Shown here piece after piece: positions 17,529-23,880 of a stretch of 24,000 bases of DNA. Location: assembly GCA_038233095.1 (NCBI GenBank), contig JBBSMR010000003.1, forward strand, positions 74,476-98,475. Direction: 5' to 3'. The stretch's first letter is position 1. The number at the start of each line of letters is the position of its first letter. Below the pieces are notes generated by a model that saw only the letters and a program-made list of their open reading frames with translations, did no database searches and was not told the origin of the DNA. The translations under genes were made by a program, and so were the position numbers. This DNA is from Euzebyales bacterium. GTDB taxonomy: Bacteria; Actinomycetota; Nitriliruptoria; Euzebyales; Egibacteraceae.

Positions 17529-18347
17529 TCAGCCGAGGATGACGGCCGGGCCCGGATGCGCGAGACGGTGGTTGACCATCTCCAGCGTCCTCCGCGAATA
17601 GGCTCGCAGGGCATGCCGCCCGCGTGGGCTCAGACGGTCACAGACCCAGCCCCAGTGCATGGAGACCCAGTCACCGACCTGCACCTCCTGCACGAAGCCG
17701 AGACCGTCGATGGCCTTGACGACCGTCTCCACGCGCGGGGCGCCGAGCAGCAGCCGCCGTCCGTCCCACTCCAGAGGCCGGGACCGGACGGCGACCTCGT
17801 CGCCGGCCACCGCGACGGCCTGCCCCCAACGGATGCGGCAGCGGTCGAGGATCTCCAACGGCTGGCCACCACGGTCCTCGGGGCGCAACAGCCCCACCCA
17901 CGGGTAGACGCAGAAAACATGAAAGCTGTGGTGGGGCACTCCTCCAGCAGGGATCGACTCGGCCAGGCGGTCCCAGCCTGGCCCCGCGCGTCGACGAAAG
18001 CGTTCCTCCAGCGAGTTGCCCATCAGCGCCGTGGGCACCTCATCGAGCAGGCGGTTCCCGACCCAGTACGCCTCCACCACGCGTCGGTCGAGCGGATCCA
18101 AGCCGCTGGATTCCGCCAATAGCTGCAGATAGGGCCACGCACCATTGAAGGCCTGTGCGATCTGCACGATGCCGGCGTCCACGACCCGCGCCGCGCCGTA
18201 CTCGAGCAGCTCGCGATGATCCGTGGGGCCGCAGTATCCGCGTTCGTTCGGGGCGTAGGCGTAGCGCGCGAACAGCAGCGGTCCGAAGGAATCGGGGAGG
18301 GTCCGGGGGACGGTGTCCGACGTGGTGGGGGGCCGACCGGGATCCAT
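17529..18347 (-). CDS. Uncharacterised hydrogenase-cluster protein (DUF6390-like by recollection), last gene of the hyp operon
   Basis: 272 aa with strong codon bias. N-terminal LLFARYAYAPNERGYCGP motif. The C-terminal ~70 aa resemble a HypC fold (see findings). The family name comes from memory, not a search. Confidence 0.7.
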   Translation of the reverse strand: MDPGRPPTTSDTVPRTLPDSFGPLLFARYAYAPNERGYCGPTDHRELLEYGAARVVDAGIVQIAQAFNGAWPYLQLLAESSGLDPLDRRVVEAYWVGNRLLDEVPTALMGNSLEERFRRRAGPGWDRLAESIPAGGVPHHSFHVFCVYPWVGLLRPEDRGGQPLEILDRCRIRWGQAVAVAGDEVAVRSRPLEWDGRRLLLGAPRVETVVKAIDGLGFVQEVQVGDWVSMHWGWVCDRLSPRGRHALRAYSRRTLEMVNHRLAHPGPAVILG

Positions 18348-21588: not shown

Positions 21589-22098
21589 TCAGCCTCTCTC
21601 GTCAATGGGCAGGGTGTGACCCAGCCCATTGTCGGGCTCGCTCAGCAGTGTCACAAGCTGCTCCACCGTGGGCTCGACCGCCGCCTCGACCACAGGGGAG
21701 AGGCCCATCCGCTCGCTGACCTCGGCGGGCTCGCACCCAACCACGACCGTGGGTGGCAGCGTCCCCCCGAGGCCGCGCAGGCTCGCGAAGACCGTGGCCG
21801 GGTCCATGGCGTGGCTGTCGACCGTACCCCGCTCGGTCTGCTCGTCCGGATCGACGTGCAGGAGCGAGACCGTGCCAGGCTCAGCGCCGCTCGGCAGGGC
21901 GTCGATCAGCACGAGCTGGTCGACCCCGTTCAGCAGGTCATAGGCCAGATGAATCCCGCCGATGCCGTAGTCCTTCACCCGCACACCTTCGGGCAGCGGG
22001 CGCGCGGCCAACCGACGGGCGACCTCAGATCCGAAGCCGTCGTCACCCAGAAAGATGTTGCCGACTCCGGCGACCAGGACGCTCCTGCACTCGGCCAA
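21589..22098 (-). CDS. hupD: [NiFe]-hydrogenase maturation endopeptidase (HupD/HyaD/HybD family)
   Basis: Core VLVAGVGNIFLGDDGFG...LIDA...DSHAM... is typical of the family. The track ORF extends to 22341, but that extension is Arg-rich and overlaps a better-biased frame. TTG 22096-22098 gives MAECRSVLVAGVGN (169 aa). The start is uncertain. Confidence 0.8.
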   Translation of the reverse strand: MAECRSVLVAGVGNIFLGDDGFGSEVARRLAARPLPEGVRVKDYGIGGIHLAYDLLNGVDQLVLIDALPSGAEPGTVSLLHVDPDEQTERGTVDSHAMDPATVFASLRGLGGTLPPTVVVGCEPAEVSERMGLSPVVEAAVEPTVEQLVTLLSEPDNGLGHTLPIDERG

Positions 22099-22102
22099 AC
22101 GC

Positions 22103-22375
22103 CTAACCGCCCTGGTCGCCGGGCTTGAGCAGCGGCATCGCGGGGTCGATCGGCGGCAGCGGGTCGACCCCGGACCACGACGAGGGACCTTTGCGGTCCA
22201 TCGAGTCCTTCTTCCCGCTGGCTCTTGCTTGCCTGGGTATCGCGGTGCCGCGGCCGCGGCTGCCAGGCCGTCCGCGTTGCTCCTGCGACTCCGCTTCCGA
22301 GAACCGTCCTGCCGGGAACGGGTTGGCCCGCTCCAGGTCACTTGGCTCCATCACCATGCCTCGTCGGTTTGGCAT
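22103..22375 (-). CDS. Hypothetical low-complexity protein (90 aa) upstream of hupD
   Basis: Hand-counted GC by codon position is about GC3 82%, GC1 70%, GC2 61%, the pattern expected for a coding frame. ATG 22375 has GGGAG 8 nt upstream. The TAG stop lies 4 nt before the proposed hupD start. The sequence is Pro/Gly/Arg/Ser-rich with no Cys and no recognised family. Confidence 0.45.
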   Translation of the reverse strand: MPNRRGMVMEPSDLERANPFPAGRFSEAESQEQRGRPGSRGRGTAIPRQARASGKKDSMDRKGPSSWSGVDPLPPIDPAMPLLKPGDQGG

Positions 22376-22392
22376 CGCTCATGCTCCCTTCG

Positions 22393-22506
22393 TCACATCG
22401 ACCTGATCTTGACGTAGCGCTTGATGTCGTCCAGCGAGGCGACCACCGCCGCGGTGAGCATGACGGCGACCGTTCCGAGCATCGTACGCAGGATCCACTT
22501 CTCCAT
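22393..22506 (-). CDS. 37-aa single-TM micro-protein (not in the ORF track)
   Basis: MEKWILRTMLGTVAVMLTAAVVASLDDIKRYVKIRSM. The ATG is preceded by GAAGGAGG (22513-22520) with a 6-nt spacer. 35 of 37 codons end in G/C. One hydrophobic helix is followed by a basic tail. Confidence 0.6.
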   Translation of the reverse strand: MEKWILRTMLGTVAVMLTAAVVASLDDIKRYVKIRSM

Positions 22507-22533
22507 GTCGCGCCTCCTTCGTGTGGCGTTCCA

Positions 22534-22551
22534 CCGACCCCCCAGGGTCGG
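22534..22551 (-). promoter_or_regulatory. Intra-operon GC hairpin (7-bp stem, 4-nt loop)
   Basis: CCGACCC (22534-22540) pairs with GGGTCGG (22545-22551). Sits between the 440-aa gene stop and the SD of the micro-ORF. No U-tract. Confidence 0.3.
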
Positions 22552-22557
22552 CGACTG

Positions 22558-23880
22558 CTAGGACTGCACCTCCTTGAGCGGCAGCGGATCAACCTCGTCG
22601 CTCGCGAAATACTGGAAACGGCCGTACCAACGGTGCAGCTCCGCCGCGGGGTCGTCGACCAAGGTCACGGCGAGGTAGACCTCACCCTCCTCGGTGCGCA
22701 CGATCCGCTCCACGAGCGCCTCCCGTCCGTCAGCAAAGAGATCGTGGGCGTCGGCGCGGCGCCGGGGACGCAGGATCACACGCTCTCCCACCGCCACCGT
22801 CTCGCCGCCCACCTGGATCGCGCGCACAGGCGCCTCCCCCACGCCGAGCAGGTCGCGCACCTCGTCGGTCACGGCGGCCGCCGGCTCGGGCCGCAGATCG
22901 GCGGGGCGCAGCTCGCGGACCGTGCCGTGCAGGCGCTCCTGCACCGCCGCGGGGAGCGTGTCCGTGCGGTCGATCAGCTCCGCGGCGCGCGGATCGGTCG
23001 CCCGTGCCCGGCGCCTCTCCTCGTCTGACAGCCCGAGCACACACAACGCGAGCAGCTCGTCGACCTCGGTCGCGTCGAACGACGGTCCGGGGCTCTCGGC
23101 GGCGATCTGAGGATGGTCGTAGAGGATGATCGGGGCGCCGAGCACGACGTCGTCGTCCTCGCCGACCAGCACCGGATGCAAGCCACGGTGGTGCAGGTCC
23201 GCGACGGCTTCCTCGGCCCACTCCGGAGGATCGATCGCCGAGGCGAACACGCCGTCGTCGACCGCGAACAGCACGTGCGCGCCGATGACCGCGCGTCGCA
23301 GCACGTCGTCGCGAGGCGCGCGCTGCGCGGACCATGGTGTGTCGTTCTGCACCGCCGCCCGCAGCTTGTACACGTCGGGTCCAAGCCGAGTCACCTCGAC
23401 GCGCAGCTCACCGCACACCGGCTCGGTGCTGCGCACCGCCTGGCCGGCCGCGCCGAGCGCTTCCCGCTCCTGCGAGCCGTCCAGGTCGAAGCGAGCACGC
23501 CACGGTCCGGCCTCGCCAAGGACCACCGCCGCCGTGACCTCGTGCTCGAGCCCCTCCTCCCAGGTCGGGACGGGGTCGCCGTCGACCTCCAGCTCGTCGA
23601 CGGGCTGGCCCTCGGCGTCGAGCATCTGGCGCAGCCGCAGGTGCAGGAAGCGCGCCGAGACGTCGACGACGGCTCCTGCGGGCGCGCGGACGAGCGCTTC
23701 ACAGTGGACGGCGCTCGGCTCGGTGGCGCCGAGCTCGACCTGGGCCTGCGGGATGACCACGCCCCACTGCCACCGGTACTTGTTCTTGAGCGCCGATGCC
23801 CGGTACGGGAAGAGCACGTAACCCTCGTAGAGCACGGCATCGGCGACCTGCCGCGCGAGCTGCAGCGTCTCGGCGCTCAT
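22558..23880 (-). CDS. Conserved-looking hypothetical protein (440 aa) in the hydrogenase maturation operon
   Basis: Track ORF 22558..23952, trimmed to ATG 23878-23880, an ATGA overlap with the upstream gene's stop. Strong codon bias throughout. Only 3 Cys and no metal-cluster or nucleotide-binding motif that I recognise. Confidence 0.7.
   Translation of the reverse strand: MSAETLQLARQVADAVLYEGYVLFPYRASALKNKYRWQWGVVIPQAQVELGATEPSAVHCEALVRAPAGAVVDVSARFLHLRLRQMLDAEGQPVDELEVDGDPVPTWEEGLEHEVTAAVVLGEAGPWRARFDLDGSQEREALGAAGQAVRSTEPVCGELRVEVTRLGPDVYKLRAAVQNDTPWSAQRAPRDDVLRRAVIGAHVLFAVDDGVFASAIDPPEWAEEAVADLHHRGLHPVLVGEDDDVVLGAPIILYDHPQIAAESPGPSFDATEVDELLALCVLGLSDEERRRARATDPRAAELIDRTDTLPAAVQERLHGTVRELRPADLRPEPAAAVTDEVRDLLGVGEAPVRAIQVGGETVAVGERVILRPRRRADAHDLFADGREALVERIVRTEEGEVYLAVTLVDDPAAELHRWYGRFQYFASDEVDPLPLKEVQS

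Follow-up and report, generated by a model that had tools for sequence, protein, structure and literature searches.

A DUF6893 small-protein gene among the maturation genes of a group 1h [NiFe]-hydrogenase and its possible role as a membrane tether

The locus

The window, that is the whole stretch of 24,000 nucleotides of Euzebyales DNA analysed here, carries on its minus strand part of a [NiFe]-hydrogenase operon, which we read together with the 9 kb that lie past the window end. The operon starts with the genes for the small subunit (hhyS), the large subunit (hhyL), a NifU/Rieske protein (HhyE-like), a DUF6084 protein and a protein of about 440 aa. It continues with a DUF6893 gene of 37 codons, a HycI-type protease gene, hypA, hypC with a paralogue, hypD, hypE and a DUF6390 gene, while hypF lies on the opposite strand, upstream of the operon. 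The features that concern us are the following, in the direction of transcription.

22558..23880, minus strand: upstream neighbour of about 440 aa, the 'hhaC'/PHG069-like gene of group 1h clusters
22531..22554, minus strand: G+C-rich hairpin in the 51-nt gap after the stop of the 440-aa gene and before the Shine-Dalgarno sequence of the micro-gene
22513..22520, minus strand: Shine-Dalgarno sequence GAAGGAGG, followed by the spacer CGCGAC (6 nt) and then ATG
22393..22506, minus strand: DUF6893 small-protein gene, 37 codons and TGA, product MEKWILRTMLGTVAVMLTAAVVASLDDIKRYVKIRSM
22432..22485, minus strand: putative membrane segment, codons 8-25, uncharged hydrophobic helix TMLGTVAVMLTAAVVASL
22396..22431, minus strand: conserved C-terminal tail, codons 26-37, DDIKRYVKIRSM
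21589..22341, minus strand: downstream neighbour, HycI/HupD-type [NiFe]-hydrogenase maturation endopeptidase (PF01750, TIGR00072; start uncertain)
17529-18347, minus strand: DUF6390 protein of an uncharacterised family (E 4.5e-93), last gene of the operon

The large subunit shares 75% identity with C. necator HofG and has PDB 5AA5 as its top match, which places the enzyme in group 1h (formerly group 5, 'actinobacterial-type', Hhy). Its C-terminal end reads DPCLPCGVH followed by 22 more residues, and the 5AA5 chain of the C. necator orthologue stops at that very histidine, so that the neighbouring protease has its usual substrate. The 440-aa neighbour matched no Pfam or NCBIfam family; homologues occupy the same slot in the clusters of C. 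necator pHG1, M. intracellulare, Streptomyces and Methylocystis.

The protease reading frame counts 250 aa from a GTG at 22341, with the protease domain from about residue 88 onward. A relative from the same family and class (locus L031) aligns with the N-terminal extension from residue 10. The minus-strand stretch 22103-22392, before the protease domain, is ambiguous and also holds a Pro/Gly/Arg-rich frame of 90 aa from 22375. At 12 nt past the stop of the micro-gene one reads GAAGGGAG, then an ATG (22381) that opens a frame of just 14 codons.

Translation signals and coding character

The window DNA has 70% G+C, and 77 open reading frames of at least 30 aa overlap its last 7 kb; a 37-aa open frame is therefore no evidence of a gene when taken alone. 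Two observations set this one apart from chance: its Pfam score exceeds the curated family cut-off, and the frame is kept at the same operon position in all 29 related loci taken from a phylum sample. A preliminary description of this DNA had pointed to the 37-aa frame, a near-perfect Shine-Dalgarno sequence, a 6-nt spacer and 35 of 37 codons ending in G or C, and all of these were reproduced. By codon position, G or C stands third in 35, first in 19 and second in 14 of the 37 codons. Within the 24-kb window the octamer GAAGGAGG occurs twice on the minus strand and nowhere on the plus strand, and 104 of 118 members of the family show a comparable purine run ahead of the start codon assigned to them. 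The gene is a single copy in the source genome (38.5 bits in a whole-genome profile scan), where a genome-wide motif search found no second copy of the tail motif either.

Scans for consensus promoters and terminators returned nothing around the micro-gene. The hairpin at 22531-22554, predicted with RNAfold on the minus strand of 22480-22575, has a 10-bp stem closed by the loop TGGG (GCCGACCC-TGGG-GGGTCGGT region). As no T-run is present it does not resemble a terminator, and it could serve as an element of mRNA processing or stability.

Identity of the family

The micro-protein matches Pfam PF21833 (DUF6893) with 40 bits against a cut-off of 24.6 (E 3.9e-10), over profile positions 3-32 of 32. 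This is its sole Pfam match, no toxin or PADLOC-type family being among the hits, and NCBIfam holds no model that matches it. The tentative remark in the preliminary description that short peptides ending in ...RY.RIRSM had been grouped as a DUF was right, the family in question being PF21833. The same description had called the gene unannotated; this holds for the list of reading frames then at hand, from which the gene is absent, and has to be given up for the protein, since an exact look-up finds the identical sequence in a public protein collection that counts NCBI among its sources. Relatives in Mycolicibacterium, Mycobacterium, Streptomyces and Arthrobacter carry the NCBI name 'DUF6893 family small protein'.

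A profile search of 1.84 billion representative proteins gave 2,400 clusters at E<=0.001; among the best 150 of these 2,400, nearly all are 33-39 residues long, with a match that reaches the last residue. A literature search for DUF6893 retrieved no paper naming the family, and a PDB sequence search with the peptide produced a chance match only (E 1.6), no solved chain resembling it. We conclude that the micro-ORF is almost certainly a translated gene of the DUF6893 family of 30-45-residue proteins, accessory to a group 1h [NiFe]-hydrogenase cluster. Within this catalogued family it is an ordinary member, and it represents no new kind of gene. It shares with the rest of PF21833 the length class, the hydrophobic N-terminal part and the PDxxRYxKxRxM C-terminus, and it differs from them in the Asp at position -11, where Pro is usual, and in its place upstream of the protease gene, which is a minority layout.

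Anatomy of the small protein

Sequence conservation in the family is restricted to the last 12 residues, the N-terminal part being kept only in its hydrophobic character. The consensus tail reads S-L-P-D-[ILV]-x-R-Y-[LIM]-[KR]-[IM]-[RS]-x-M-stop, and the more general family motif is [PD]-[DE]-hydrophobic-x-R-Y-hydrophobic-[KR]-[IM]-[RS]-x-M-stop. In the numbering of the window copy, no alignment member departs from R30, Y31 or the terminal M37, and R35 is nearly invariant (alignments A1/A2). We judged this on 25 sequences found by HMM or by genomic context, none of them chosen by motif; in the 80 loci recovered by a motif scan, the constancy of D, R, Y and M-stop is given by construction, the motif having been the selection criterion. 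All three stop codons occur after the terminal Met across the family. The window protein, with 37 aa, is close to the family median of 35.

The hydrophobic part is less uniform. Across 118 members, the longest stretch free of charged residues measures 16 residues at the median, with a range of 7-27, and both its flanks are basic on average, with a mean charge of +2.4 on the N side and +1.9 on the C side. The window copy has an uncharged run of 18 residues (T8-L25) with flank charges of +2 and +1. Its best 19-residue window scores +1.6 kcal/mol in a simple Hessa sum, a position-independent measure over the best 19 residues; the sum is positive in 77% of members, the window copy included, and negative in 23%. 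The single transmembrane helix attributed to this protein in the preliminary description is plausible and not secure. Many members possess a hydrophobic run of only 12-16 residues between basic flanks, and those of the kind MSMLRR-LVVGAALVGLVAVL-RKS… would be only marginally membrane-spanning; the window copy, too, belongs with the marginal cases. The mycobacterial-type members (ME/DVLGW…), in which 21-26 uncharged residues stand between an N-terminus that is neutral or acidic and a tail with a charge of +3, are clearly predicted as membrane helices of N-out/C-in orientation. An AlphaFold2 model built with 45 aligned sequences gives one unbroken helix over residues 3-36 (pLDDT 94) and says little beyond helicity.

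In four loci of Blastocatellia/Pyrinomonadaceae, a tandem paralogue directly follows a normal DUF6893 gene and keeps the tail with no hydrophobic segment (L064 2793-3122, L074 3914-4039, L103 3311-3583 and L115 409-729). These proteins end in …VVPDFQRYMKIRNM / VPDFQRYMKIRNM and carry a polar N-terminal part, …HPxxRQxLKxNLDRVLPG…, in place of the helix. With conservation limited to the tail and with paralogues that do without the helix, the tail has the look of a functional module and the helix that of an address.

Distribution and gene order

In a sample of 401 genomes of the phylum, PF21833 is matched in 37, and in each of the 29 loci fetched from this sample the frame is intact beside a homologue of the window's protease. 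The DUF6084 protein provides an independent marker of 1h clusters: it is found in 45 of the 401 genomes, 33 of which contain a Pfam-detectable DUF6893 and one more a divergent copy. The 12 marker-positive genomes with no Pfam match comprise the divergent copy, two clusters cut by a contig edge before the protease, one rearranged cluster and about eight members of a divergent subclade (L039, L041-L047), whose 1h clusters have no DUF6893 ORF within 6 kb. In this subclade the large subunit is about 60% identical to that of the window, and the hha genes, protease gene and hypA are tightly packed. Two of its loci, L046 and L047, contain frameshifted or fragmented genes. The existence of such a subclade makes the gene a common component of the system, neither universal nor essential to it.

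Across 185,579 species genomes, a scan with a degenerate DNA motif returned at least 80 loci, and among the matches listed an HMM-confirmed ORF is present in 79 of 80. The hosts among the matches listed include Actinomycetota, many Acidobacteriota, Gemmataceae/Planctomycetales, Verrucomicrobiae, Dormibacteraeota, Thermoanaerobaculia and one deltaproteobacterial MAG. Gaps in plasmid annotations also hold the ORF, as on pHG1 of C. necator H16, on a plasmid of M. intracellulare and on one of Streptomyces fungicidicus, and the Methylocystis parvus cluster has a divergent copy ending in …RDIVRYIKITMM. The 117 confirmed ORFs come from at least five phyla. When orthologous loci were checked for loss of the frame, the frame itself, the RY pair and the terminal Met proved to be kept in Actinomycetota, Acidobacteriota, Planctomycetota, Verrucomicrobiota, Dormibacterota and Pseudomonadota.

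Gene order was tallied for these 117 HMM-confirmed ORFs in 110 loci, motif-scan loci included, with neighbours identified by tblastn. Ninety ORFs directly adjoin the protease gene, and this backs the link to hydrogenase maturation that had been proposed from the window operon. Most of them (74/117) come directly after the protease gene, with hypA next in 40 cases; 16 come directly before it, and this layout, the one seen in the window, is common to its own class, Mycobacteriales, Arthrobacter and Actinoplanes. Three copies follow hypA, one stands at a contig end after the 440-aa gene, and two precede the small-subunit gene; a position just upstream of that gene is seen in four Acidobacteriaceae loci. 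Of the copies that do not adjoin the protease gene, most are found among hyp genes and a few elsewhere. Two loci from the window's own family and class (L025, L031) have two copies, one on either side of the protease gene, and tandem copies occur in other loci too.

For the remaining 21 of the 117 ORFs, tblastn detected no Hhy neighbour. Pfam scans of such loci reveal several hyp contexts (hypF-x-hypB-[6893], [6893]-hypA-hypB and hypE-[6893]), and in several acidobacterial loci they place DUF6893 copies beside unrelated genes. In two actinomycete loci, a DUF6893-like ORF lies directly upstream of an ABC1/UbiB-type atypical kinase gene (L104 4107-4238, L127 1127-1255); these copies have the tail …KDD[LI][DE]RY[LI]RMR[NQ]M and no hydrogenase genes nearby.

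The distance from the DUF6893 stop to hypA varies from -14 to 192 nt across loci. It measures 132-192 nt in Streptomyces-type loci (L004, L050, L084, L117, L129) and 2-60 nt elsewhere. The long Streptomyces gap suggests that the micro-gene ends a transcription unit there; a scan of the gap of about 140 nt before hypA in L084 for consensus promoters and terminators found nothing.

Copies that persist without the hydrogenase, and apparent fusions

Two genomes keep the gene beside the protease gene although their Hhy structural genes are gone. In M. lacus (G243; locus L049, C1:2942000-2955000), two hhyS fragments are followed by an intact DUF6893 gene and then by the protease gene; the locus is devoid of the large subunit and the 440-aa gene, and DUF6084 is found nowhere in the genome. 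A second genome (G384; loci L048, G384:C1:2554000-2567000, and L171) has an operon of protease, DUF6893, hypF, hypC, hypD and hypE with no DUF6084, and its sole [NiFe] large subunit, closest to the sulfhydrogenase/group 3b type, is encoded 1.6 Mb away. This assembly consists of two contigs and is 97% complete. Its DUF6893 copy has a Gly at the near-invariant Asp. Both cases agree with a gene that goes along with the maturation set and not with the structural genes, and both could equally be recent losses of the Hhy genes.

A search of the loci and of the best library matches for a natural fusion of DUF6893 to any partner found none: the long open frames that end in the motif never share the reading frame of the gene next to them. 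Three proteins of about 200 aa (P0145, P0149 and P0190) were considered as fusions and set aside. They consist of the first two-thirds of the protease with all three metal-ligand motifs kept, an out-of-frame stretch and a perfect DUF6893, and they are most simply explained as frameshift errors or gene-caller read-through in high-G+C DNA.

A possible tether for maturation and its competitors

We propose, tentatively and with a probability of roughly 0.45, that the protein is a small tether in the membrane and that the protease or the maturation complex is docked by its tail in the cytoplasm. The variable N-terminal hydrophobic helix would insert in the cytoplasmic membrane and leave the basic tail of 12 residues, DDIKRYVKIRSM-COOH in the window, on the cytoplasmic face. 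There the tail may dock a maturation partner, most likely the large-subunit endopeptidase encoded next to it, or else the pre-enzyme complex. The membrane, to which the enzyme once complete must deliver its electrons, would thereby become the site of the last steps of assembly. What the analysis shows is conservation, a motif, a gene order and a helical propensity, while insertion in the membrane, topology, partner and any influence on hydrogenase activity are inferred. In favour of the tether we count the adjacency to the protease gene, which outlasts the Hhy structural genes in two genomes, the modular tail and the clear membrane segment of the mycobacterial type; the short basic-flanked runs with a positive Hessa sum, the 1h subclade devoid of the gene, the copies away from hydrogenase genes and the negative search for fusions count against it. 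Since some copies lie outside any hydrogenase context, the partner of the tail may be something general. As background to this proposal, Hhy associates with the membrane although it lacks a cytochrome b and any other anchor known so far (PMC6883350). A bolder form of the idea, which we find possible and on balance doubtful, takes DUF6893 for the long-sought link between group 1h hydrogenase and membrane, with the 12-residue tail as a portable docking tag that recruits soluble partners, either the Hhy maturation complex or the enzyme, near the quinone pool; the tail is indeed kept both in the helix-less paralogues and in the copies beside ABC1/UbiB-type kinases.

In the main rival to the tether, the same small protein might instead be a structural subunit, namely the missing membrane anchor of mature Hhy, which would hold HhySL (with HhyE) at the membrane for quinone reduction. 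DUF6893 is the sole predicted membrane element of the cluster, and the clusters of the two model enzymes, on pHG1 of C. necator and in mycobacteria, both contain its gene. In its role such an anchor would be analogous to the cytochrome b of group 1d enzymes or to HucM of Huc. The appeal of this rival is that Hhy is found at the membrane with no anchor known for it (PMC6883350), and that Huc overcame this difficulty by means of an additional protein, HucM (PMC10017518); the Acidobacteriaceae copies just upstream of the small-subunit gene also speak for it. We nevertheless consider an anchor rather unlikely. That the copies almost never lie among hhyS, hhyL and hhyE and are found beside the protease or hyp genes is a mild argument against it; the C. 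necator enzyme crystallised as HofK/HofG alone (5AA5), the gene persists in the two genomes that lost the 1h structural genes, a whole 1h subclade does without it, and some copies are unlinked to hydrogenases. Both the anchor and the tether take the helix to be in the membrane. It could also be buried in a soluble partner such as the hhaC-like protein or the protease, the product then acting as a small chaperone-like or stabilising subunit. The many hydrophobic runs of 12-16 residues between Arg/Lys flanks, too short for an ordinary bilayer span, point in this direction, as does the paralogue that has no hydrophobic part. A hydrophobic stretch conserved in composition only is, however, what helices that face lipid typically show and what a buried interface usually does not, and the 21-26-residue runs of the mycobacterial type are strongly hydrophobic, which makes a soluble location improbable.

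Two further explanations dispense with a partner protein. TnaC and SpeFL are arrest peptides that stall the ribosome at termination, and the micro-gene might likewise encode a cis-acting leader whose residues by the stop codon tune the next maturation gene from within the ribosome tunnel. Conservation in the last 12 codons alone, a stop that always comes right after the Met, a strong Shine-Dalgarno sequence and the frequent position at the border of the structural and hyp blocks would all agree with such a device. A leader should act on a fixed downstream gene, but that gene may be the protease gene, hypA, hypF, hypC or none, the distance to hypA is as variable as described above, all three stop codons are used, and in the window the next SD-ATG follows the stop after just 12 nt; moreover, selection has maintained a hydrophobic N-terminus which, when translation terminates, would not yet have left the tunnel. 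We regard this reading as very unlikely. Exported pro-peptides and type-I-toxin-like membrane peptides have a similar size, a hydrophobic N-terminal part and a charged C-terminal end, and the DUF6893 copies that stand alone could suggest a peptide of that kind with no role in hydrogenase biology. Hardly any weight can be given to this suggestion in view of an operon synteny that is stable across phyla, a strong Shine-Dalgarno sequence, a highly basic tail straight after the hydrophobic part, which disfavours export, and the fact that PF21833 is the only family matched, with no toxin family among the matches.

Known counterparts and interest

Single-helix accessory subunits of respiratory complexes such as CydX and KdpF offer one comparison for DUF6893, which is like them in size, in its single hydrophobic helix and in its place in the operon of a membrane-linked energy enzyme. 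They are conserved within the helix and have membrane-integral partners, whereas DUF6893 is conserved in a tail outside the helix and its partners are predicted to be soluble. HucM, the membrane-associated stalk protein of the group 2a hydrogenase Huc, offers another. It counts about 189 residues and forms a tetrameric scaffold and a lipid-lined tube (PMC10017518). The possible analogy is one of role, both being non-catalytic proteins that would link a hydrogenase oxidising atmospheric H2, and lacking cytochrome b, to the membrane. HucM is encoded with the structural genes, whereas DUF6893 is a single helix encoded among maturation genes, and the two have no sequence relation.

Group 1h hydrogenases account for much of the soil uptake of atmospheric H2, and it is still unresolved how their maturation proceeds, what keeps them at the membrane and how they couple to quinone (PMC6883350). 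A one-helix protein that is encoded in most 1h clusters, those of both model organisms included, and whose family is named in none of the papers searched is for these reasons a cheap target for a knockout, which would either reveal a missing part or strike one candidate off the list. DUF6893 is a testable candidate for linking Hhy or its assembly to the membrane, and as such of moderate interest for experiments in M. smegmatis or C. necator. Beyond the identification itself, the present analysis contributes a count of gene positions, the finding that many members are only marginally hydrophobic, paralogues reduced to the tail, copies next to ABC1 kinases, a 1h subclade devoid of the gene, and two genomes in which it stays beside the protease gene in the absence of Hhy.

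C. necator has a counterpart of the window gene, and M. smegmatis a likely one. On pHG1 of C. necator H16, the cluster for the crystallised group 1h enzyme contains a 33-codon ORF, MKGFLKYLVLPALVVALLANIKDIRRYIRIRSM, that matches the family HMM with E 6e-13. It stands after the protease gene and before hypF, while the window copy precedes the protease gene. In M. smegmatis, MSMEG_2714 ('hypothetical protein') has MSMEG_2715 on one side and the M52 peptidase MSMEG_2713 on the other. This is the slot of the window micro-gene, and judged by position MSMEG_2714 is likely its orthologue. A microarray table lists MSMEG_2714 as co-induced with the Hhy genes (PMC5445863).
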